Shown: in pieces, positions 5,841-15,885 of the stretch
How the letters are laid out: each line of letters starts with the position of its first letter
Position numbering within the stretch: the first letter of the stretch is position 1
Source of the DNA: Candidatus Micrarchaeota archaeon
GTDB taxonomy: Archaea; Micrarchaeota; Micrarchaeia; Norongarragalinales; UBA8480
DNA length: 16,220 bases
Assembly: GCA_043805855.1 (NCBI GenBank)
Contig: JAZDHP010000032.1
Coordinates: forward strand, 1-16,220
Reading direction: 5' to 3'
The notes under the pieces: generated by a model
Told to the model about the DNA's origin: nothing
Databases searched by the model: none
Seen by the model: the letters and a program-made list of their open reading frames with translations, nothing else
Position numbers and translations under genes: made by a program

Positions 5841-5909
5841 TCACTAAACTCTTCTAAATTTTACATTTATGGGGGATTGGGCTAGCCTGGCTATGCTTCC
5901 AGCTTTGGG

Positions 5910-5972
5910 AAAGCTTTTTTCTTTTACAAAAGAAAAAACCTTGGAAAAAAGAAAATCCAAGCGCTTGAAAAC
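5910..5972 (+). other. tRNA-Pro intron 1 (37/38, 63 nt), carries triplex-type repeat
   Basis: Relaxed BHB: central helix TTTG/GAAA (one G.G mismatch), bulges GG|A and AC|A, closing helix AAGC/GCTT. Confidence 0.85.
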
Positions 5973-5987
5973 AGCTGGAGACCTGAG

Positions 5988-6050
5988 GAAAGCCCTTTTC
6001 TTGTAAGAAAAGGTCTTTCAGTCCCAAAAGAACTGAAATGCTTTCAGGTA
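5988..6050 (+). other. tRNA-Pro intron 2 (53/54, 63 nt), carries triplex-type repeat
   Basis: Strict BHB: central helix CCTG (5982-5985)/CAGG (6045-6048), bulges AG|G and TA|T, closing helix AAAGC/GCTTT. Confidence 0.87.
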
Positions 6051-6056
6051 TTCAAA

Positions 6057-6103
6057 TCTGCAAAATGACGAGTCATTTTGACTTTTCGCCTTGCAGACGA
6101 AAA
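6057..6103 (+). other. tRNA-Pro intron 3 (59/60, 47 nt)
   Basis: Central helix TTCA/CGAA (one A.C mismatch), bulges AA|T and AA|T, closing helix CTGCAA/TTGCAG. Confidence 0.8.
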
Positions 6104-6104
6104 T

Positions 6105-6223
6105 CTCAGATCCCCCATTCTTTTTTATAATTAGTTTAGTGGTTTCTTTTGGCCACGCCTGGCCTTTTCTTTATGAAAGAAAAGGCATGGCCTCGGATCC
6201 CCCATTTTCTTTTTTATAATTAG
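6105..6223 (+). repeat. Direct repeat of tRNA-Pro 3' end plus trailer, flanking a 57-bp insert
   Basis: CTCAGATCCCCCATTCTTTTTTATAATTAG (6105-6134) versus CTCGGATCCCCCATTTTCTTTTTTATAATTAG (6192-6223). Confidence 0.9.
6143..6186 (-). repeat. Free-standing, inverted copy of the triplex-type repeat
   Basis: Minus strand reads GCCTTTTCTTT CAT AAAGAAAA GGCCAGGCGTGGCC AAAAGAAA. Confidence 0.85.
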
Positions 6224-6224
6224 C

Positions 6225-7181
6225 CTAATTTTCAACTTTTTCTTCTGGCTTTTTCAACTTCTTAAAGTAAAACCAAACGCCCGCAATTACGATTATAATT
6301 GCTAGAAGTACAAGCGCTAAATTAGTGAAGTCAAACGAACTACTTTTTATCTTTTTCACCAGCACAAGTGTCTCTGCACTTTTCTCAACAGCGGCGTCTA
6401 CGTTTGCTGCGTTTATTGTGTTTAACTCTACAACGTTTTCAATTTCGCTTTGAACTAACGCTTCAGCTTCGGTTAGTTTTTCCTCACTTTGCACTACCAT
6501 CGGCGAGTCTCTGCCAACTGAAACTATTTTTTCGTTTAGCAACGTACGTGCTTCGCGCGTATCTTTCAGCGCCGCACCTAGTTTAGCTCCGTTTTCGTTT
6601 AAACTATTTACAAACGCGTTGAAGTCACTGTACTCGTCTTGAAAATCTTCATTTAATGTAGTTACTAATTCTAGTGTTGCGTTTCCTCGCATTTGCCGTA
6701 CAATTGTTGTTAACGCGTTTACCTTCGCGTCTGTTTTTGAAAAGTCAACTTCGGGAAGTAGAGTTTTCGCAGTTTCGGTTTTGTTCTTGGCGCTTTCCAG
6801 CTTAAGGGCAGCAGCGTCAATTATTGTGTTTACCTCGTGTTTAACTTTTCTAGCTGGTGTTTTTGCAATTATTGAATCACTTAACGCTTCTGCAGTTATT
6901 TGTAGAGTAGTTTCTCCGTTTTGTAAGTAGTCGCTACTAACTGAAGTAATTTTATCTTGGTCTTGAATTATGTTACCCTCTGTGTCAAGTACAAACGACG
7001 GCGTGTTGTTAACCAAAACTAAAACGTACGTCAAGTGAGTTTCGCTTCTAATTTGCTCTACAACTTCAAAAACAGAATAATCTTCAGTGTTGTCTAAATA
7101 TGTAGGAATGACTTTGTCAAAGTCAGCTTGCGCTGCAACTAAAAACGTAAAAGCCAAAAGGCAGAACAACAATCGCTTCAT
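6225..7181 (-). CDS. Secreted, C-terminally membrane-anchored protein (helical/coiled-coil ectodomain)
   Basis: Likely start ATG 7181 (MKRLLFCLLAFTFLVAA, signal peptide). Acidic helical middle region. C-terminal TM helix LALVLLAIIIVIAGVWFYF followed by KKLKK. Confidence 0.8.
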   Translation of the reverse strand: MKRLLFCLLAFTFLVAAQADFDKVIPTYLDNTEDYSVFEVVEQIRSETHLTYVLVLVNNTPSFVLDTEGNIIQDQDKITSVSSDYLQNGETTLQITAEALSDSIIAKTPARKVKHEVNTIIDAAALKLESAKNKTETAKTLLPEVDFSKTDAKVNALTTIVRQMRGNATLELVTTLNEDFQDEYSDFNAFVNSLNENGAKLGAALKDTREARTLLNEKIVSVGRDSPMVVQSEEKLTEAEALVQSEIENVVELNTINAANVDAAVEKSAETLVLVKKIKSSSFDFTNLALVLLAIIIVIAGVWFYFKKLKKPEEKVEN

Positions 7182-7239
7182 TTCACAAATTCCCTCTAGA
7201 AACGTTACTTCTCGCAAGTATAAAACTTGAACTGTGTGC

Positions 7240-7274
7240 CTTTCTTTTAAAAAGAAAGCCGCCGGGAAAGAAAA
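7240..7274 (+). repeat. Free-standing copy of the triplex-type repeat between divergent promoters
   Basis: CTTTCTTTT A AAAAGAAAG CCGCCGG GAAAGAAAA. Confidence 0.85.
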
Positions 7275-7294
7275 GGGGTTAACCCGGTATAGCT

Positions 7295-7301
7295 TTTTTA
7301 A
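7295..7301 (+). promoter_or_regulatory. Putative TATA box for tRNA-Tyr
   Basis: TTTTTAA ends 29 nt upstream of the mature tRNA start. Confidence 0.5.
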
Positions 7302-7366
7302 TGCTGTTTCTCCTAATTTTATTTGGTGTTCCCGCCTTAGCTCAACGGTAGAGCACCCCGCTGTAG

Positions 7367-7398
7367 CTTTGTATACTTCCTTAACCGGAAGAATAGAA
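7367..7398 (+). other. tRNA-Tyr intron 1 (37/38, 32 nt)
   Basis: BHB central helix CTGT/ATAG, bulges AG|C and AA|A, internal hairpin CTTCC/GGAAG. Confidence 0.87.
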
Positions 7399-7420
7399 AC
7401 GGGGCGGTTGTTGGTTCAAA

Positions 7421-7480
7421 CGGCTTTTCTTTTAGAAAAAGAAAAGTCCGTGGGAAAAGAAAAACTTTTCTCCATGAAAA
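7421..7480 (+). other. tRNA-Tyr intron 2 (59/60, 60 nt), carries triplex-type repeat
   Basis: Central helix TTCA (7415-7418)/TGAA (7475-7478), bulges AA|C and AA|T. Confidence 0.87.
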
Positions 7481-7599
7481 TCCGACAGGCGGGACTATTT
7501 CTTTTTCTTTGCCTATTTTTTCAATATATTTTTAGGGTGCACTTTTCGCTTTTTGTTAAAATGTGCTCCCTAACTATGTTTTGTACAGATCCTTATCCT

Positions 7600-7606
7600 T
7601 TTTTAA
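7600..7606 (+). promoter_or_regulatory. Putative TATA box (leaderless transcript)
   Basis: TTTTTAA ends 23 nt before ATG 7630. The same spacing occurs at 8546-8552 and 13677-13683. Confidence 0.5.
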
Positions 7607-7629
7607 TTCAATTTTACTTAGTATTTATT

Positions 7630-8490
7630 ATGAGTGAAGAACGCGGTAAAACTGGAAGGGAATTTGTAATTGTTAGCCGAAAGGAGCTTGTAGTTCCAGA
7701 ACCGGTAAGGGGTAAGTCGCTTGCGAAAGACGAGCCGCCCGAGCTTGAAGATCCGAGTTTTTTTGACAGTTCAACTGAAGCGTTTGAAGTTGGTGGTTAT
7801 CATTTTATACGTCCACAAGAGGATTATCATCGCCGTAGCCAGCCTACTTTTTCACTTGGGAAACATGAAAAAGGGTTCATTAGTGCTAACAATGGGGTTG
7901 TAGCTATTAGCACTAATCATGGTACATTTGTAGGCTATCCTGGGCCTGGTTTTCATTCAGCAGCTTCTAGAGCTGGTTTTGTTCGGGGGGCGTATAATGA
8001 ATCTGTTCCGCATTCAAATTATACTGACTCACCTTGGCTTTTTGAAAGGATTGACCTGCGGACTGGCCGTTTGAAACCAGAATATTTACACTTGTTTAAT
8101 CGTAGATATAAACCGCCAAAACCACGCGCGAAGGAAGCAGCTCCAGAAGTTGAAGAGCCTAAATCTCCGGTCCAGCTGTTAATTTCTGACATTAAAGACG
8201 ACCACGTCGCTTTCCGCACACTTCATAATCTAATAGACGACGAAATGGCATACGCGTTTACTGCCACTGAGATTCACAAGCCAAACCCCGCAGTTATAGC
8301 TTACGCAGTTAGAAAATTAGGTTTGTCCCGTGCTTCGGCTCCAGAGAAGATGCGGAAAGATGTTAAAGAACTTTTACAGCGATTTCACCCTGACAAGTTT
8401 AAACCGCGAGGTTTTGACCAAGAAGCACATCGTAAAGTTGTTGACCTTTTAAACTCAGTTCGCGGCTTCCTACGAAAAGCTTCTGATTAA
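7630..8490 (+). CDS. Hypothetical protein with C-terminal J-domain-like region (286 aa)
   Basis: Likely start ATG 7630 (MSEERGK). C-terminal AVRKLGLS...KDVKELLQRFHPDK...LLNSVRGFL resembles a J domain, with HPD at 8386-8394. Confidence 0.7.
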   Translation: MSEERGKTGREFVIVSRKELVVPEPVRGKSLAKDEPPELEDPSFFDSSTEAFEVGGYHFIRPQEDYHRRSQPTFSLGKHEKGFISANNGVVAISTNHGTFVGYPGPGFHSAASRAGFVRGAYNESVPHSNYTDSPWLFERIDLRTGRLKPEYLHLFNRRYKPPKPRAKEAAPEVEEPKSPVQLLISDIKDDHVAFRTLHNLIDDEMAYAFTATEIHKPNPAVIAYAVRKLGLSRASAPEKMRKDVKELLQRFHPDKFKPRGFDQEAHRKVVDLLNSVRGFLRKASD

Positions 8491-8545
8491 TTTTTGTCTT
8501 TTATTCAATGACTTTTTTGTTTTACTTAACTGGTAGCCTCTAGCT

Positions 8546-8552
8546 TTTTTAA
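8546..8552 (+). promoter_or_regulatory. Putative TATA box (leaderless transcript)
   Basis: TTTTTAA ends 24 nt before GTG 8577. Confidence 0.45.
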
Positions 8553-8576
8553 CCGCCTTGCGTTTACTTTTTGTAG

Positions 8577-10214
8577 GTGGTGTTGCTTTTGTCTAAATTG
8601 TTTGTCTTTATTGCGTTGTTGTCACTTTCTATATTTGTAGTTGCAGAGAGTGCTTATTCTTCAGAAGCCGAAACTAGTGCTGTTGGCCAGGCGCTTGCGC
8701 TGAAGTGCATTGAAAGTTACGGTAACTGTAATTGTGGCGAGTTGAGAGGTGCAAGTGCAGTTTCTTTATGTGAACAAAACAAAGCTAAAGTTGAAAGTTT
8801 TATTCAACGTTGTGCAGCTGATGTTGACAACTGTAACTGTGCTGAGCTGGGAGAGCAGGAAATGGTCACTGCGTGTAATTACCAGTTAGTTCAATTGCAA
8901 AGCCAAGTGAAGCAATTTGCAGAACGTTGCTATAAAGATATGGAAGCGTGCAGTTGCAGTGAATTTAAGGTGCCGCGGCAAGTTGAAATGTGCGAAGCGC
9001 AGAAACATCAGTATTTACAAAAAGCACAGGCAATTGTACTACAATGCGTTGACGACCCGTTTAAGTGTGATTGTTCTTCGCTTGGAAACCACGCCGGCGA
9101 GTGCCAGCGCCAAGTTGACATTGGAAAACAAGTTAGGGAGCTTTGCCACCAGGATTTGGAAAAGTGCGACTGTTCTCCAATTGAAAACAAAGCTGCGCGT
9201 GAATCGTGTACTAATGCAAAAGCGTATGGTTTAGAGTTTAAGTCAAAGTTTGAAAAGCAATGCACTGACAATCCAGTTACTTGCGACTGTGCAACAATTC
9301 CATCTGCTGCTGGTAGAAAAGAATGCGAGGAAAAAAAGCAAATTGCAATTAAACAAGCTGAAGGCGAAATTGCAGGTTACATGGACGCTTGCTTTGCCAA
9401 CATGGAAAAGTGTAATTGCAATGCGCTTCCAAAGCCAGAGTACGTTCCATTTTGCAAAGAAATGCTTGGCTATGGTTTAAGCTGTTTAAACGAAGGGGTA
9501 ATGTGTGAAAAGTTGGAAGACGTTGATATGGCGCCGCCTGGAATTCCTGAATTCCTGCGCCCGTATTTCAAACAATCTTTTCGCGCGAAGCTAGAGGCAG
9601 CTAAGCAAGATGGCGCTAGGAAAGCAGGTGAAATTGCAAAGACATGCGTGCTTGACCCGGAAAAATGCGACTGTTCTGCGGTTCCATTGTACGCGCGTGA
9701 CTTTTGCGTTGAGAAAAAAACCTTGCAGCTAAGTTGCATTAATGACAAGGATATTGCCGCTTGTAATAAATTAGACGCGAGTTTAGAAGTTGTACCTCCA
9801 GATGTTCCGTCGTTTATACGAGGACCGCTTGACGCGTTGCTTCGCCCGCTGGTATTAATTCAAAAAGACCAAATAAAGGGGCAATACGCGCAGGAAACTA
9901 AAGATTTGATTTTACAGTGCATTGATGACATTGAAAAATGTCGGTGCAACGACGTTCCGAAAATGTACCGCGATTTCTGTAACCACAAAGTTTCACTTGT
10001 AAAGCAATGCTATTCAAAGAACTACAACGCGTGTTTTACTGTGCTTGACGAGAAGAACATTCCAGACGACGTGCCGGGTTTCATCCGTGTTTTTATTGAA
10101 GGCGACGTAGATGCAAAGGTAAGGGCAAAAGGCGAAGAGATGCTCAAAAAACTCGCGCCACAAGAATGTAATAATTTAACGTTGCAGCAATGCAGGCAAA
10201 AGCTAGAAAAGTAA
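8577..10214 (+). CDS. Secreted cysteine-rich repeat protein
   Basis: Hydrophobic N-terminal signal. Nine Cx6CxCx10-11C repeats, plus three CxnC...P(P/D)x(I/V)PxF(L/I)R units. 44 Cys by my count. Confidence 0.85.
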   Translation: MVLLLSKLFVFIALLSLSIFVVAESAYSSEAETSAVGQALALKCIESYGNCNCGELRGASAVSLCEQNKAKVESFIQRCAADVDNCNCAELGEQEMVTACNYQLVQLQSQVKQFAERCYKDMEACSCSEFKVPRQVEMCEAQKHQYLQKAQAIVLQCVDDPFKCDCSSLGNHAGECQRQVDIGKQVRELCHQDLEKCDCSPIENKAARESCTNAKAYGLEFKSKFEKQCTDNPVTCDCATIPSAAGRKECEEKKQIAIKQAEGEIAGYMDACFANMEKCNCNALPKPEYVPFCKEMLGYGLSCLNEGVMCEKLEDVDMAPPGIPEFLRPYFKQSFRAKLEAAKQDGARKAGEIAKTCVLDPEKCDCSAVPLYARDFCVEKKTLQLSCINDKDIAACNKLDASLEVVPPDVPSFIRGPLDALLRPLVLIQKDQIKGQYAQETKDLILQCIDDIEKCRCNDVPKMYRDFCNHKVSLVKQCYSKNYNACFTVLDEKNIPDDVPGFIRVFIEGDVDAKVRAKGEEMLKKLAPQECNNLTLQQCRQKLEK

Positions 10215-10296
10215 AAACACTTAATTCGCGTATTGCCGTAGTGTATTTCGACAAACGAAAACTGTTAAAATAACTGTTGTTCCACTACTTCCACAA

Positions 10297-10842
10297 ATGA
10301 TTGAAATTCGTTTCCACGGCCGAGGAGGGCAAGGTGCTGTAACTGCAGCTGAACTGCTAGCTGTTGCTGTTGGTGAAGAGGGCAAATCCTCGCAGGCGTT
10401 TCCTTTTTTTGGAGTTGAACGCCGCGGCGCGCCTGTAAAAGCATTTTGCCGCATTGACGACAAAGAAATTATAATTCATGAGCAAGTTTATAACCCAGAT
10501 ATTGTCGTTGTGCTTGACGCTACGTTAATAGAAGCAGGTGTAAACGTACTAGAAGGAATTAAACCAAACGGAGTTGTTGTTGTTAATTCTCCAAAACCAG
10601 TTGCGTTTGCAAATCCAGTTGCGGCTGATGTGAAAGTGTTCTACGTTGACGCGACTTCAATTGCCCACCAGTGGCTTGGAGTTCCAATTGTAAACACTGC
10701 AATGCTCGGCGCGTTGGTAAAAGCAACTAACGTTGTAAAACTTGAAAGTTTGACAAACGCTCTTGAACACCGTTTCGGCGCAAAAGCAACGGCAAATATT
10801 GATGCGGTTAAAGATTGCTTTGAAAAAACGATAAAGGTTTGA
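10297..10842 (+). CDS. porC: Pyruvate/2-oxoacid:ferredoxin oxidoreductase gamma subunit
   Basis: [44 protein letters not shown]. Confidence 0.95.
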
Positions 10843-10849
10843 AATTTAA

Positions 10850-11149
10850 ATGAAAATTCCATATGCAAAACCAGGAACAAGTATTGCTAACAAAACTGGA
10901 GATTGGCGCAGCGAGCGGCCGCTAGTTAGCGACAAGTGCACTGCGTGCGGGACGTGTGTACGCGTTTGTCCAGACAGGTGTATGGAGTTAATTAGCCGAA
11001 GCGGTAATCCAGCGTCAATTGCAAAGGTAGATTATGATTATTGTAAGGGTTGTGGCATTTGCGCTAATGAGTGCCCCGTAAAGGCAATTGTTATGAAACG
11101 AGAGGAAGATGTAAAGAGCGAAGCTGCAAAGGAAGGCGAGAAAAAGTGA
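10850..11149 (+). CDS. porD: Pyruvate/2-oxoacid:ferredoxin oxidoreductase delta subunit (2x[4Fe-4S])
   Basis: KTGDWRSERP, CTACGTCVRVCPD, DYDYCKGCGICANECP. Confidence 0.95.
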   Translation: MKIPYAKPGTSIANKTGDWRSERPLVSDKCTACGTCVRVCPDRCMELISRSGNPASIAKVDYDYCKGCGICANECPVKAIVMKREEDVKSEAAKEGEKK

Positions 11150-12297
11150 AACGAACTATTGAAGGGAGTTTTGCAGTTGCAGAAGCGACGAAAAACTGCG
11201 AGCCAGAAGTAGTAGCGTGCTATCCAATTACTCCCTCTACTCATATTGCTGAAGAGCTAGCGCAGTTCTACGCTGACGGTAAGCTTAAGCAGTACATTGC
11301 GGTTGAAAGTGAATTCGCAGCAATATCCGCTTTAATCGGCGCAAGTGCAACTGGCGCACGTACGTTTTCAACAACGTCAAGCCAAGGCCTCGCGTTGATG
11401 AACGAAGTGCTGTTTACAGTTTCAGGAATGCGTTTGCCAATTGTAATGGCAGTTGCAAACCGCGCGTTGTCAGCGCCGCTGAACATATGGAACGACCACC
11501 AAGACGCTGTTTCCGAGCGCGACAGTGGATGGATTCAACTTTACTGCGAGTCAAACCAAGAAGCAACCGACACAATTCCCCAAGCGTTTAAAATCGCTGA
11601 GAAAACTTTATTGCCTGTTATGGTCAACATGGATGGATTTTATCTAACGCACAGCGTTGAGCAAATTGACGTTCCAGAAAAAGAGTTAATTGCAAAATTC
11701 TTATCGAAATTTAATCCCGAGATTAAACTCGACCCGCAAAACCCGCTAAGTTTAGGAGTTTACGCATTTCCAGAGCACTACCAATCTTTCCGCGAGGATT
11801 TACACCAAGATTTAATCGCGTCGCAAAAAATAATAACTGAAGTAAACGCCGAATGGGCGAAACTAACTGGGCGTAATTATGGCAACGGGTTGTGGGAAGA
11901 AATTAATCTTCACGACGCCGAGTACGTAATCGTAGCAATGGGCTCAGTTATTGGAAATGTTAAAAGCGTTATAAATGAAGAGTTGCAAAAAGGGAACAAA
12001 AAGTGGGGTTGCCTGCGCTTGAAATCCCTGCGGCCGTTTCCAACTCAAATTGCTTCTCTACTTAGCGGTAAAAAGTCAATTGGTGTTTTCGAAAAGGCGC
12101 TTTCACTAGGCGCGCCTGCAGTACTTTACAGCGAATTACGTAGTGCGTTGTACGATTGCAAGGAAAGCGCATCGCAGCGTCCAATTGTTTCAAGTTTCGT
12201 CGGCGGCTTAGGTGGTAGAGATATAACTCGCCAGCATATTCGAGATTTATTTACAAAATTAGAAAAAGGCACTGGCAGTGTGCAGCAATTCATTTGA
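11146..12297 (+). CDS. porA: Pyruvate/2-oxoacid:ferredoxin oxidoreductase alpha subunit
   Basis: YPITPST, VESEFAA, TSSQGL, NRALSAPLNIWNDHQD, GGLGGRD. Likely start is GTG 11146, overlapping the porD stop (GTGA). Confidence 0.95.
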   Translation: MKRTIEGSFAVAEATKNCEPEVVACYPITPSTHIAEELAQFYADGKLKQYIAVESEFAAISALIGASATGARTFSTTSSQGLALMNEVLFTVSGMRLPIVMAVANRALSAPLNIWNDHQDAVSERDSGWIQLYCESNQEATDTIPQAFKIAEKTLLPVMVNMDGFYLTHSVEQIDVPEKELIAKFLSKFNPEIKLDPQNPLSLGVYAFPEHYQSFREDLHQDLIASQKIITEVNAEWAKLTGRNYGNGLWEEINLHDAEYVIVAMGSVIGNVKSVINEELQKGNKKWGCLRLKSLRPFPTQIASLLSGKKSIGVFEKALSLGAPAVLYSELRSALYDCKESASQRPIVSSFVGGLGGRDITRQHIRDLFTKLEKGTGSVQQFI

Positions 12298-12298
12298 G

Positions 12299-13669
12299 AT
12301 GTTACAAAAAATGGCAGCAGTACTTGGTTTGGAAAAAGAACAATTGTTTGAAAAAGGACAGCGAGCATGCGCTGGCTGTGGTGCAACAATTGCAATGCAC
12401 TTAATTCTCGACGTAGTTGGAAAAGATTGCATTATAGTAAACTCAACAGGGTGCATGGAAATTATCTCTTCTCCATTTCCAGAAACCGCGTGGAACGTGC
12501 CGTACATTCACGCTAATTTTGAAAACGCAGCTGCAGTTGCAAGCGGAGTAAGCCGCGCGTTGAAAGCAAAAGGCAACGACCACACTAAAGTAGTTGTAAT
12601 CGCAGGCGACGGCGCAACTTACGACATTGGCTTTGGAGTTTTATCTGGTATGCTCGAACGCAACGAAGACGTACTTTACATTTGCTACGATAATGAAGCG
12701 TATATGAACTGTCTTAGCTTGGACTCGTTGATTTACACTGAAAATGGCTTGAAAAAAATAACTGAGGTTAAAGTTGGAGAAAAAGTTTATGCGTTTAATC
12801 AACAAAATGGCGAACTAGTGTTGAAAAAATGCACTGGCGTTTTTGACAACGGCGTAAAACCAGTTTATGAATTGTTAACTGGCCATCATTCTATAAAAGC
12901 AACTGCAAATCACCCGTTTCTCGTTGTGCAACGCAATGGTAAAAGCGGACACAATGAATTAGTCTGGAAAGAACTTGCGCTGCTAAAGCCAGAAGAAGAG
13001 ATAATGACTTTGAAAAATATCAAAGACAAAGAACCATTTGTTCCCGCAAAAATTATTTCAATTAAGTTAATTAAAGACGAGCCGACGCTTGACTTGCGTG
13101 TTGAAGGCGAGCATAATTTTGTAGCAGATGGAATTGTAGTTCACAATACGGGTGTGCAGCGGAGTAGTTCAACGCCGAAATTCGCTTCAACTACAACTTC
13201 GAAAGTTGGCTCTGAGATTCTCGGCAAGCAGGAGTTGAAAAAGCCAATTTTGGAAATCGTCGCTAGCCATAAGATTCCCTACGCTGCGTCGACAAGCGTT
13301 GCCTATCCATTTGATGTTTACAATAAATTGAAAAAAGCTCTTTCATTCAAAGGTGCGAAGTTTCTATTAATCCACGCGCCTTGCGTTCCAGGTTGGGTTT
13401 ACCCAACTAGCAAGACGCTCGAGATGGCCAGGCTTGCAATTGACACTGGAATGTGGAAAATGCTTGAATACGAAAACGGAAAATGGAAAATTACGAAAAC
13501 ACCATCTTTCAAACCAGTAAAAGAATACCTCTCACTGCAAAAGAGATTCGCACACGTTACCGAAGCACAAGAAAAACACTTGGAAGAGCAAATTAAGTTC
13601 GAATTCGAAGCACTACAAAAACTAGTCAACGCGACTAATGCTCCAACCGCTCCAGCGGCAACGCAGTGA
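12299..13669 (+). CDS. porB: Pyruvate/2-oxoacid:ferredoxin oxidoreductase beta subunit, intein-containing
   Basis: RACAGCG, TGCMEI, FENAAAVASG, GDGATYDIG...YDNEAYMN[intein]TGVQRSSSTP, APCVPGW. Likely start is ATG 12299, just after the porA stop. Confidence 0.95.
   Translation: MLQKMAAVLGLEKEQLFEKGQRACAGCGATIAMHLILDVVGKDCIIVNSTGCMEIISSPFPETAWNVPYIHANFENAAAVASGVSRALKAKGNDHTKVVVIAGDGATYDIGFGVLSGMLERNEDVLYICYDNEAYMNCLSLDSLIYTENGLKKITEVKVGEKVYAFNQQNGELVLKKCTGVFDNGVKPVYELLTGHHSIKATANHPFLVVQRNGKSGHNELVWKELALLKPEEEIMTLKNIKDKEPFVPAKIISIKLIKDEPTLDLRVEGEHNFVADGIVVHNTGVQRSSSTPKFASTTTSKVGSEILGKQELKKPILEIVASHKIPYAASTSVAYPFDVYNKLKKALSFKGAKFLLIHAPCVPGWVYPTSKTLEMARLAIDTGMWKMLEYENGKWKITKTPSFKPVKEYLSLQKRFAHVTEAQEKHLEEQIKFEFEALQKLVNATNAPTAPAATQ
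12710..13147 (+). mobile_element. Mini-intein (146 aa, no homing endonuclease) in PorB
   Basis: Block A CLSLDSLIYT, block B IKATANHPFLV, block F/G TLDLRVEGEHNFVADGIVVHN, +1 Thr. Removing it restores YMN-TGVQRS. Confidence 0.95.
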
Positions 13670-13676
13670 ACAACTG

Positions 13677-13683
13677 TTTTTAA
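13677..13683 (+). promoter_or_regulatory. Putative TATA box (leaderless transcript)
   Basis: TTTTTAA ends 23 nt before ATG 13707. Confidence 0.5.
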
Positions 13684-13706
13684 CCCAACGCGAGTAATTC
13701 TAACAT

Positions 13707-14348
13707 ATGGCTACTCTTGAAAACATTTGGCGCCAAGTTGACAACTGCCCAGCATGTCAAGCGAGCAAAAACTCGCTTCAACACGTGCACGGCGGCGGGC
13801 AGGAGAACAAACCCCGTTTCGCACTCGTGTTCATCAACCCAACGTACAATAACATTTCAACGCAACCGCAATGGCGCGGTAAGCGCTATCCTTTTATTGG
13901 CACTCGTGCAGTTTGGCGTGTTTTGGTAAAAAGTGGTTTGTTGCCTGTGAGTGTTTTGCAATTAACTGAAGGTAAGTGGAGTGAAGAAACCGCGGTGCAA
14001 GTTGAGAAAATAATGCAGGAAAGCGGCATCTACTTAACTAACGTTGTAAAGTGCACTGCACCGCACGGCGATGCACCTTCAGTAGAAACAATCCGTGACA
14101 AACTACCTTTGCTAATTGAAGAGCTGGAAATTGTGCAACCGCAATTGACAATCGCAATGGGCTTAATCCCATTCAAAGCTTTAACCGGCGAAAGTGTGAA
14201 GCTCGGCGAGTTTACAAAGAAATTTGCCGTTAAGCCTAAGTTTTTCCCTTCGCCGGCGGGCAAAGTTGTGCCGTGCTGGTTTCCAATTGGCCGCGGAAAT
14301 CCAAAGAAGGCAATTCAACTGCTTAAGGCCATTTCTGCTAACGTATAA
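13707..14348 (+). CDS. Uracil-DNA glycosylase superfamily protein (family 4-like, divergent)
   Basis: N-terminal CPAC, PFIG, IYLTNVVKC, EELEIVQPQLTIAMG. The canonical catalytic motifs are altered. Confidence 0.8.
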   Translation: MATLENIWRQVDNCPACQASKNSLQHVHGGGQENKPRFALVFINPTYNNISTQPQWRGKRYPFIGTRAVWRVLVKSGLLPVSVLQLTEGKWSEETAVQVEKIMQESGIYLTNVVKCTAPHGDAPSVETIRDKLPLLIEELEIVQPQLTIAMGLIPFKALTGESVKLGEFTKKFAVKPKFFPSPAGKVVPCWFPIGRGNPKKAIQLLKAISANV

Positions 14349-14379
14349 AAACTCTAATTCAGCAATAAATTAGCTAATT

Positions 14380-14410
14380 GTGACAAAAGTGACGCGTACG
14401 TGACAAAAGT
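14380..14410 (+). repeat. 11-bp direct repeat GTGACAAAAGT x2 (20-bp period)
   Basis: Copies at 14380-14390 and 14400-14410, immediately upstream of tRNA-Asp. Confidence 0.75.
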
Positions 14411-14478
14411 TGCAACTTAGTATTTGCCTTGGTAGTGTAGTGGCCTAGCATTCAAGATTGTCACTCTTGCGACCCGGG

Positions 14479-14539
14479 AAACCCCCTTTTTCTTAAAAAG
14501 AAAAAGGCCGTTTAAGGTTCAAAAAGAAGGGTTCGAGAA
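14479..14539 (+). other. tRNA-Asp intron 1 (53/54, 61 nt), carries triplex-type repeat
   Basis: Central helix CCCG/CGAG (one C.A mismatch), bulges GG|A and AA|T, closing helix AACCC/GGGTT. Confidence 0.85.
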
Positions 14540-14545
14540 TTCAAA

Positions 14546-14588
14546 ATGCGTTTCTCTCATTTTTTCGAGAAACACAAACGCAAGAAAA
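14546..14588 (+). other. tRNA-Asp intron 2 (59/60, 43 nt)
   Basis: Central helix TTCA/AGAA (one A.A mismatch), bulges AA|A and AA|T, closing helix TGCGTTT/AAACGCA. Confidence 0.82.
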
Positions 14589-14670
14589 TCCCGGCCAAGG
14601 CGTAAAAAGCAAAGGTGTTACAGCGCCATAACGGTTCCTAATAAAGAAGGAACAAGGAAAGTGATACGTT

Positions 14671-15885
14671 ATGGCAGCTGTTGACATCTATAATTTACCT
14701 CGTAAGCTGGAGCGCTACGTGGAGCGAATTAAACAAGAACCTACTATCTGTGATTCTAATCGCGAAGCCATACTCAAATTCTTCGACTACTGTTTTGCTA
14801 ATGGCTTAAGCACTGCTCGCGTGTTAATCTATGCGCAGCGCTTGCTTCCAATTGCAAAGCTACTTGGGAAAGACTTCAAAGAAGCCACAAAAGATGACAT
14901 CCAAGCTCTAGTTGGAGAAATTGAACGTAAAGCATGGTCGCCTTGGACTAAACACTTTTACAAGGTTACTTTGAAGAAATTTTATAAGTGGCTTGAAGGT
15001 AATGACGAGTTCTCCCCTGATAAAGTCAAGTGGATAAAGGGGAGTGTAAAAAATAGTCAAAAAATGCTTCCTGAAGAGCTTCTCAGCTATCAAGATATAT
15101 TGAAAATGATTGAAGCTGCGCCGAATGCTCGTGATAAGTGCTTGATCGCAGTTCTCTTTGAAAGTGGCTGTAGAATTAGCGAACTAGCTGGTGTTAAAAT
15201 AAAACACGTTTCATTTGACGCATATGGAGCGCAGCTACTTATTGCCGGAGGCAAAACTGGAGCACGAAGAGTTCGATTAATTACTTCAGTTAACTTGTTG
15301 AAAACCTGGCTTGATTATAATCCTTGGAAAACAGATCCAGAAGCTTCACTTTGGCCTCGTTTAACTAATCGCTGGAAAGGACAACCTTTACGCTACCAAG
15401 TAATTCGTCAACGCATTGTTGACATTGCTAAAACTGCAGGCGTAACAAAGCGAGTAAATCCACATAGTTTTCGTCATGCACGCGCTACGCAATTAGCGAA
15501 AATGGGTTTGAGTGAAATTCAAATGACGGGCATAATGGGCTGGGTTGTTGCTTCTCGCCAATGTGCTACTTATGTTCATATGAGTATGCGGGATACGGAT
15601 AATACGTTGCTAAAAGCGCATGGCATTGAGGTAAAAGATGACAATTGTGAGTTTATCTGTTGTCCCCGTTGCAGCAAGCAAAACACGTTGAACTTAAGCT
15701 ACTGCGGAGGTTGTGGAATGCCTTTAAACATGAAAGCTGCCGTTAGCGCTGACGCTAAAACCGCAGAGCTTGAAAAGAATCTCGAATGGTTACGAAATAT
15801 AATAGAAAATGACGAAAGTATTAGGAATGCAATTGCCGACAAACGAGCTAACCAGTTAAAATCTTCTAGTGAAACAAACCAATAG
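14671..15885 (+). CDS. Tyrosine recombinase/integrase with C-terminal zinc ribbon
   Basis: Catalytic R (ESGCRISE), K (GKTG), HxxR (HSFRHAR), W (MGW) and Y (ATYVH). CPRC...CGGC zinc ribbon. Starts 68 nt after tRNA-Asp. Confidence 0.93.
   Translation: MAAVDIYNLPRKLERYVERIKQEPTICDSNREAILKFFDYCFANGLSTARVLIYAQRLLPIAKLLGKDFKEATKDDIQALVGEIERKAWSPWTKHFYKVTLKKFYKWLEGNDEFSPDKVKWIKGSVKNSQKMLPEELLSYQDILKMIEAAPNARDKCLIAVLFESGCRISELAGVKIKHVSFDAYGAQLLIAGGKTGARRVRLITSVNLLKTWLDYNPWKTDPEASLWPRLTNRWKGQPLRYQVIRQRIVDIAKTAGVTKRVNPHSFRHARATQLAKMGLSEIQMTGIMGWVVASRQCATYVHMSMRDTDNTLLKAHGIEVKDDNCEFICCPRCSKQNTLNLSYCGGCGMPLNMKAAVSADAKTAELEKNLEWLRNIIENDESIRNAIADKRANQLKSSSETNQ

Follow-up and report, generated by a model that had tools for sequence, protein, structure and literature searches.

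What is the small structured repeat that fills several tRNA introns of a Candidatus Micrarchaeota archaeon, and how does it come to sit there? The question was raised by JAZDHP010000032.1, a contig of 16,220 nucleotides (nt) that we analyzed over its entire length and refer to as the window. It belongs to assembly GCA_043805855.1 (1.03 Mb, 41% G+C, 92% complete), which we labeled G000. Between positions 5915 and 14528, the window carries six copies of an element built from a pyrimidine tract (Y), a complementary purine tract (R1), and a second purine tract that mirrors the first (R2). We found that these copies belong to a real, abundant, and lineage-wide repeat family with a strict three-tract register. 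Its members occur only in DNA that is spliced out or left untranslated, and their turnover is fast.

A repeat family with three tracts in register

We searched for a Y tract of at least 7 nt with at least one C, followed by a loop of at most 5 nt, the exact reverse complement of Y, a linker of at most 30 nt, and an exact mirror of R1. This search recovered the six copies that a first-pass annotation of the window had described as sharing one layout (5915-5955, 5996-6032, 6143-6183 on the minus strand, 7240-7274, 7424-7463, and 14487-14528) and found no seventh copy in the window. In all six, a Y tract of 7 to 11 nt with one C is separated by a loop of 1 to 3 nt from its exact reverse complement, and a G+C-rich linker of 6 to 15 nt leads to a third tract that is the exact mirror of the purine tract.

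Across the genome, we found 74 exact copies, compared with 0, 0, 1, 1, and 1 in five genomes simulated with a third-order Markov model. The pattern is thus more frequent than chance. When one mismatch was allowed, no locus was gained, and imperfect copies made up 2 of the 74. Because the tracts are nonpalindromic in 65 of the 74 copies (they are palindromic in 9), a mirror can be distinguished from a direct repeat. We surveyed 150 asymmetric Y/R hairpins of at least 8 bp and found an exact mirror downstream of 39 and an exact direct repeat downstream of 3. Upstream of the same hairpins, we found neither a mirror nor a direct repeat (0 of each). We concluded that the third tract is a mirror and that it always lies at the 3' end of the purine arm.

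Members of the family are 35 to 50 nt long and A/T-rich, with a loop of 1 to 5 nt and a short G+C-rich turn before the mirror tract. The tracts hold one or two G/C in 7 to 12 positions, unlike the G/C-rich stems of TMECO, an Escherichia coli repeat discussed below. Reading of the flanks showed that the linkers, together with the 3 to 7 nt before the Y tract, form recurring subfamilies. Example linkers are CCTTGG; CCTTCGG, TCCGTGG, and ACCGAGG; palindromes of the CATCGATG type; GGTCTTTCAGTCCC; GGCCGTTTACGGTTC; and GGCCAGGCGTGGCC. Run lengths differ inside a subfamily, always across all three tracts. We also found the CCGTCGG-linker subfamily in the T-loop intron of one tRNA and the D-loop intron of another, which suggests jumping between positions.

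We assigned contexts to 73 copies, one overlapping 7-mer match having been dropped from the 74, by reading their flanks with the aid of ARAGORN after in silico splicing, Rfam, and a scan for open reading frames (ORFs). ARAGORN gave models at 28 of 46 element clusters genome-wide, at least two of which look wrong, and a few more came from a further run. We found that 57 of the 73 copies lie in tRNA introns. Fifty-one of these are in the sense orientation: about 28 at position 59/60, 6 to 7 at 53/54, 8 in the anticodon arm, and 8 in the D-arm. The other 6 are antisense; in 4 cases, the antisense copy forms the second half of a forward-plus-reverse pair within a single intron. Another such pair (2 copies) lies in a 23S rRNA intron, so that 59 of the 73 copies are within tRNA or rRNA genes. 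Outside these genes, 3 copies lie directly 3' of tRNA ends (trailers), 2 lie upstream of tRNAs, 2 lie between duplicated tRNA 3' ends, 1 follows a C/D-box-like RNA that scores below the Rfam cutoff, and 6 lie beside ORFs, 4 of them straight after a stop codon. A single copy has convergent genes on its two sides. None of the 73 copies is inside coding sequence, which extends to the whole genome the absence from protein-coding genes noted by the annotation. Relative to the local transcript, 62 copies are sense and 11 are antisense. The constant orientation that the annotation had claimed for intron copies held for the four in the window but not genome-wide, where 6 of the 57 intron copies and 11 of all 73 are antisense.

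Standard tools report few tRNAs in this genome: 5 scored above the Rfam cutoff, and 3 were found as intronless genes by ARAGORN. The abundant intron elements explain this near-absence of tRNAs from standard tool output for these genomes.

Three of the loci outside the window deserve a brief description. The pair in the 23S rRNA gene (contig C5, 60369-60456) presumably marks an rRNA intron. The C/D-box-like small RNA (E value, 2e-4; contig C63, 10309-10560) has the element directly 3' of it, followed by about 150 nt of A-rich near-repeats. At two contig ends (C20, 14437, and C31, 63), we found the same tRNA 3' part with identical flanks, and these two copies may be one locus assembled twice.

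tRNA genes of the window and turnover within the genus

With default settings, ARAGORN and Rfam found zero tRNAs in the window. Once intervening segments were removed, ARAGORN accepted tRNA-Pro(UGG), tRNA-Tyr(GUA), and tRNA-Asp(GUC), all on the plus strand. Copies 1, 2, 5, and 6 are therefore intron cores, in agreement with the annotation, which had read them as intron bodies at several tRNA positions. The introns that hold them are 63, 63, 60, and 61 nt long and interrupt positions 37/38, 53/54, 59/60, and 53/54, respectively; three further introns of the same three genes carry no element. We placed the splice sites of the window by hand, using the cleavage rule for bulge-helix-bulge (BHB) motifs. 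By this reading, central-helix pairing is 4/4 for 5988-6050 and 7421-7480 and 3/4 for 5910-5972, 6057-6103, and 14479-14539. Automated removal of BHB-bounded segments followed by ARAGORN yielded no model for tRNA-Pro and tRNA-Asp because some of the splice motifs are relaxed.

The tRNA-Pro(UGG) gene (5871-6117) has three introns, and ARAGORN called tRNA-Pro(tgg) after 5910-5972, 5988-6050, and 6057-6103 were removed. The 63-nt intron at 37/38 (5910-5972) has element 1 (5915-5955) as its core, with tracts T6CT4, A4GA6, and A6GA4 and the linker CCTTGG. The 63-nt intron at 53/54 (5988-6050) has element 2 (5996-6032) as its core and reads by hand as a strict BHB, with the central helix CCTG/CAGG and the outer helix AAAGC/GCTTT. 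The 47-nt T-loop intron at 59/60 (6057-6103) has no element, and G000 is its sole carrier among the four genomes of the genus. Element 3 (6143-6183, minus strand) is antisense to the tRNA and belongs to the linker-GGCCAGGCGTGGCC subfamily. It sits between duplicate tRNA-Pro 3' ends plus terminator (6105-6134 and 6192-6223). We considered the second 3' end as an alternative exon. Some joins gave a cloverleaf in silico, but we found no splice motif, and a terminator precedes it.

Element 4 (7240-7274, plus strand) is free-standing by exact search and ORF scan and lies 57 nt 5' of the tRNA-Tyr(GUA) gene (7331-7495). That gene has a canonical intron of 32 nt without an element (7365-7396) and a 59/60 intron of 60 nt (7421-7480) that holds element 5 (7424-7463). 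The tRNA-Asp(GUC) gene (14426-14602) has a 61-nt intron at 53/54 (14479-14539) that holds element 6 (14487-14528). An element-free second T-loop intron follows at about 14546-14588, with ambiguous boundaries. All of these introns were supported by ARAGORN models of the spliced genes.

In minimum free energy (MFE) RNA folds of the four element-bearing window introns, the Y/R1 hairpin always formed and R2 was unpaired; it either made up the loop of another, small hairpin or served as a junction strand. The Y/R1 hairpin of 59/60 introns begins 3 to 4 nt past the 5' splice site, where it is stacked upon the outer helix. In intron 14479-14539, the outer helix AACCC/GGGTT starts directly after the third tract. 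R2 is thereby fixed at the junction by its 3' end, which excludes the mirror register in the splice-competent RNA fold of such introns.

Two neighboring genes of the window may be recorded here. A tyrosine integrase gene (14671-15885) lies 68 nt 3' of tRNA-Asp, near the contig end; a tyrosine integrase beside a tRNA gene is the usual mark of an integrated element. An intein interrupts the thiamine-diphosphate-binding subunit encoded in a pyruvate:ferredoxin oxidoreductase operon (12278-13669), where Pfam Intein_splicing was found between parts of the TPP domain.

We compared six tRNA genes and one ORF end of G000 with their counterparts in three genomes of the same genus, G001, G002, and G003, and found gains, losses, swaps, and flanking duplications. 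The six tRNA genes contain 12 introns, 6 of which have a same-site intron in G002. Nine of the introns bear an element. In G002, 4 of these sites keep an element, 1 has an intron without one, and 4 have no intron.

In tRNA-Pro, the 37/38 intron was present in all four genomes, with T6CT4-type tracts in two and CT4CT4-type tracts in a third; the remaining genome has a different subfamily there. At 53/54, three of the four genomes have an intron, and the subfamily in G000 differs. The 59/60 intron, copy 3, and its duplication were found only in G000. We found no T-arm introns in the tRNA-Asp genes of G002 and G003, one intron at 59/60 with a different element in G001, and two introns in G000. 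The 59/60 intron of tRNA-Tyr is missing in G002; this intron, the 59/60 intron of tRNA-His, and the D-loop intron of tRNA-Arg(CCU) were found only in G000. The 37/38 intron of tRNA-Arg(CCU) has an element in G000 and none in G002. At 59/60 of the same tRNA, the element is common to both genomes; the hairpin arms are one base shorter in G002 (T4CT2 versus T3CT2), but the third tract retained the extra A. The 59/60 element of tRNA-Ala(CGC) reads CT4CT3 in G000 and G003 and T7CT3 in G002, and the trailer element of tRNA-His reads T5CT3 in G000 and T3CT5 in G002; in both cases, all three tracts changed. In total, tracts changed in step at five orthologous sites, with the extra A in the third tract at one (tRNA-Arg 59/60), which bears out the annotation's claim that run lengths covary across the three tracts. 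We also found decayed copies: in the tRNA-Ala trailers of G002 and G003, the hairpin arms of the element no longer match. Most introns here share one recognizable core that moves, swaps, and disappears within the genus. We concluded that even between congeneric species, gain, loss, and replacement of copies are rapid.

Direct duplications of 25 to 75 nt of neighboring sequence flank elements at four loci, all of them outside introns. About 30 nt of the tRNA-Pro 3' end is duplicated around element 3 in the window, as described above, and about 25 nt of the tRNA-Ile 3' end is duplicated in G000 (contig C9, 30764 and 30852). In G002, a 75-nt stretch that covers the promoter of tRNA-Tyr and the initial 27 nt of the gene is duplicated (locus L134, 1720-1890), and the ortholog of element 4 sits between the two copies. 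The fourth duplication, of the last 9 codons plus the stop codon of an ORF (contig C10, 28923 and 29024), affects the tRNA-splicing endonuclease gene (PF01974), and both end copies read YYEIEWVQP-stop. At this locus (C10, 27711-29050), an antisense element lies directly behind the stop codon. The insertion is common to G000 and G002; the G003 site is single and empty. The element has T6CT3 tracts with the palindromic linker CATCGATG in G000, versus T4CT3 tracts with CGTCGACG in G002. We rejected the flanking duplications of 25 to 30 nt as splice motifs; their palindromic tetramers give a central helix, but the outer helices have 0 to 2 bp. The duplications hint at element copying or DNA rearrangement.

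Occurrence in other genomes

We looked for an 8-nt core pattern of the element in other genomes. It turned up in 19 of the 41 relatives from the order and in 48 of the 201 genomes sampled from the phylum, where a blank for the core is not proof that the family is absent. The phylum tallies include two genomes flagged as unpublished (G067 and G218), and no conclusion depends on either one. The core pattern is spread very unevenly over families (for example, 9 of 10, 5 of 6, 1 of 56, and 0 of 36 genomes). The same pattern read backwards gave 0 to 1 matches per genome, both in the 41 and in the 201 genomes.

The splicing endonuclease is distributed otherwise. In G000, its domain (PF01974) lies at C10, 28401-28661, in a frame of 412 amino acids, and we found the domain in 198 of the 201 genomes, mostly in frames of about 385 to 420 amino acids. 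With the domain in 198 of the 201 genomes, endonuclease type and element presence gave no contrast.

Among the 80 matches listed from public genomes, at least 26 are archaeal records, and at least 7 are titled Micrarchaeota or Micrarchaeia. The other archaea among the matches listed include Pacearchaeota, Woesearchaeota, Aenigmatarchaeota, Nanoarchaeota, Altiarchaeota, Iainarchaeum, and at least 4 records of ANME-1/Methanophagales. One Micrarchaeota record (L055) shares its intron core with G002, which puts the genus of the window in this phylum. At one Aenigmatarchaeota locus and one Iainarchaeum locus, Rfam gave a tRNA match that runs across an intron and contains the element. Extension of the triple register past the forced 8-nt core, scored for 126 matches at 122 public loci, did not separate archaeal from bacterial matches.

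Competing explanations and known relatives

The layout of the element is that of a class II intrastrand triplex, and this suggests that a triplex may form. We infer that the three-strand register is under selection, because no copying process is known to generate mirror repeats, because a tract that served as an alternative hairpin arm would have to repeat R1 directly, and because the tracts change together at orthologous sites. The explanation that we favor, with a probability of about 0.45, is that the element is a non-autonomous DNA repeat that is tolerated through intron splicing. According to this model, the repeats would persist only at places that are excised or untranslated, namely, BHB introns of tRNA and 23S rRNA, the leaders and trailers of tRNAs, and the bases that directly follow stop codons. 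Intron copies would be rendered harmless by the splicing endonuclease of the phylum, which has a broad specificity. The selected fold would form in single-stranded DNA, during replication or transcription, and would promote local rearrangement and copying by host recombination or replication, which in turn would seed and remodel introns. We lean toward DNA as the site of the fold because the sense strand has the layout of the purine motif, and passages of Holder et al. (2015; PMC4666352) report that this motif does not form in RNA. Some splice-competent folds also exclude the triplex, copies occur in both orientations and outside introns, and the counterparts in bacteria are DNA repeats associated with local instability, all of which argues in the same direction.

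Several observations weigh against a tolerated DNA repeat. The tracts are 80 to 90% A/T, a poor composition for the purine motif. A ratio of 62 sense to 11 antisense copies is unexpected for a purely DNA-level element and could mean that the element acts as RNA or is copied by way of RNA. The low count of imperfect copies (2 of 74) resembles the outcome of purifying selection on individual copies more than it resembles junk, though there are decayed trailers in G002 and G003. Tolerance alone also fails to explain the distribution, because the pattern is patchy (48 of 201 genomes) while the endonuclease is near-universal. We saw no terminal inverted repeats and no fixed target duplication; the inverted repeat is internal, and the flanks show either no duplication or one of 25 to 75 nt. 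Y1_Tnp and TnpB, the two transposase domains searched for, were not found in this 92%-complete genome. The annotation had proposed a non-autonomous mobile or functional structured element. In line with mobility, orthologous sites are not fixed: 4 of 9 lack the intron in G002. We found no autonomous or defined mechanism of transposition.

A rather doubtful alternative places the function in RNA. Within the pre-tRNA or the intron after excision, the U/A hairpin and the A-rich third tract would adopt a compact tertiary fold, be it a triple helix, minor-groove docking, or a protein platform, and would prevent intron-exon mispairing, help to present the splice motif, or stabilize the excised and possibly circular intron. 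The sense orientation of 62 of the 73 copies is consistent with this, as are the near-perfect copies, which suggest selection on each, and the MFE folds, in which the Y/R1 hairpin always forms with R2 left unpaired and, at 59/60, stands close to the 5' splice site on the outer helix. However, the sense RNA has the layout of the purine motif, which is reported not to form in RNA, R2 is pinned in introns such as 14479-14539, where the mirror register cannot lie along the hairpin, copies also occur outside introns and in antisense, and element-free introns are found in the same genes (6057-6103 and 7365-7396). We think it unlikely that the triplex-forming repeat is itself an intron-making element of a new kind, driven by its three-strand fold, that inserts or is copied beside tRNA and rRNA exons, brings or provokes splice flanks, and drives the gain of non-canonical introns across DPANN; it might then be the first natural purine-motif triple helix that matters in RNA.

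Four copies start straight after a stop codon, one lies between convergent genes, and three begin directly past tRNA 3' ends; moreover, the complementary strand reads as a T run, a G+C hairpin, and a T run. These features could mean that the repeat is a gene-end signal, either a bidirectional terminator or a 3'-end protector, with the intron copies secondary. We consider this improbable, as tRNA or rRNA genes contain 59 of the 73 copies and would suffer from termination within them, and a terminator has no need of the mirror register. It is more improbable still that there is no three-strand structure and that the mirror is a by-product of A/T runs, slippage, an ordinary hairpin, or an alternative hairpin arm. 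The tracts are indeed simple, mostly with one G in an A run, and in the 9 of 74 copies with palindromic tracts, Y can pair with either purine tract. In contrast, an alternative arm would be a direct repeat, and we found 3 exact direct repeats against 39 mirrors; simulations yielded 0 to 1 copies, the tracts changed in concert at orthologous sites, and the point about mirror repeats and copying applies here as well.

The closest known kind to a non-autonomous DNA repeat of this layout is the class II intrastrand triplex repeat of bacteria, known as PIT, BoxC, or TMECO. In passages of Holder et al. (2015; PMC4666352), which also cite Hoyne and Maher (2000, 2002) on intrastrand triplex repeats, four classes of intrastrand triplex motif are defined. 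There, the E. coli class II repeat is described as G/C-rich and intergenic, without strand bias and sometimes in inverted pairs; it forms a triplex in vitro and is linked to local rearrangement. The words tRNA and intron are absent from the main text of that paper. As far as these passages describe the bacterial repeat, the archaeal family resembles it in strand order (pyrimidine tract, purine tract, and antiparallel purine third tract), in the presence of many copies far above shuffled controls, in loops that are less conserved than stems, and in some inverted pairs. The two also share local rearrangement between close strains and the lack of a known transposase. The archaeal family differs in its A/T-rich tracts, which set it apart by description from G/C-rich, strictly intergenic repeats with no strand bias, and in the location of 59 of 73 copies in tRNA or rRNA genes as intron cores with an orientation of 62:11. 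It may thus be an archaeal, A/T-rich, intron-dwelling branch of intrastrand-triplex-type repeats. In the literature that we searched, we found no paper linking triplex-type repeats to tRNA introns. The family would connect the poorly understood bacterial repeats with a defined place in archaeal genomes. A triple helix is expected to leave three-way covariation as its signature in the sequence, and the family provides a rare natural data set of hundreds of copies in many genomes.

Two other kinds of element bear comparison. Miniature inverted-repeat transposable elements and repetitive extragenic palindromic elements are small, noncoding, structured, and dispersed, lie outside coding sequence, and differ in presence or absence. 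The archaeal elements are likewise small, structured, dispersed, excluded from coding sequence, and variable in presence, but we saw neither terminal inverted repeats nor a short fixed target duplication, and the third mirror tract has no counterpart there. RNA triple helices of the ENE type place two U-rich strands around one A-rich strand. They share with our element a U/A-rich hairpin and a third homopolymer-like strand. In contrast, the sense RNA here has one U-rich and two A-rich tracts, and an ENE-like makeup occurs only in the 11 antisense copies.

For the introns themselves, the nearest precedents are non-canonical BHB introns of ARMAN-2 (Candidatus Micrarchaeum) and the Thermoproteales. 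In main-text passages of Fujishima et al. (2011; PMC3239211), ARMAN-2 tRNAs are interrupted at 53/54 and 59/60, and a three-unit endonuclease cuts relaxed motifs. The idea of intron transposition appears there and, as cited there, in a 2010 Thermoproteales paper. Judged by those passages, the introns described here are alike in phylum (for ARMAN-2), in their sites (53/54, 59/60, and 37/38), in relaxed splice motifs, in a three-unit endonuclease, in a tRNA-Pro with a weak D-arm, and in related introns at different positions. They differ in length, since the ARMAN-2 introns described in these passages are short (13 and 25 nt). The same passages, the supplementary intron lists aside, make no mention of a shared hairpin-plus-mirror core. 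A core of this kind offers a testable handle on the old question of where non-canonical archaeal tRNA introns come from.

An archaeal repeat with a related fold is described in passages of a 2021 paper (PMC8044849): recurrent G-rich repeats with a C-rich flank in Methanomicrobiaceae, which fold in vitro as an antiparallel triplex or a G-quadruplex. Like our family, this repeat is archaeal, dispersed, and noncoding, and its single strand can form a hairpin plus an antiparallel purine third strand. As described there, it differs in being G-rich and intergenic only, in having the third strand on the 5' side, and in competition with a quadruplex; the passages mention neither tRNA nor introns.

We also observed a bacterial look-alike of the core pattern in many genomes of Clostridia and Oscillospiraceae (for example, loci L022, L038, and L044). 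Rfam gave no match on 12 of these bacterial loci. In the look-alike, a T4CT3/A3GA4 hairpin is lengthened by 4 to 6 bp, and AAAAGAAA follows 1 to 2 nt after the hairpin.

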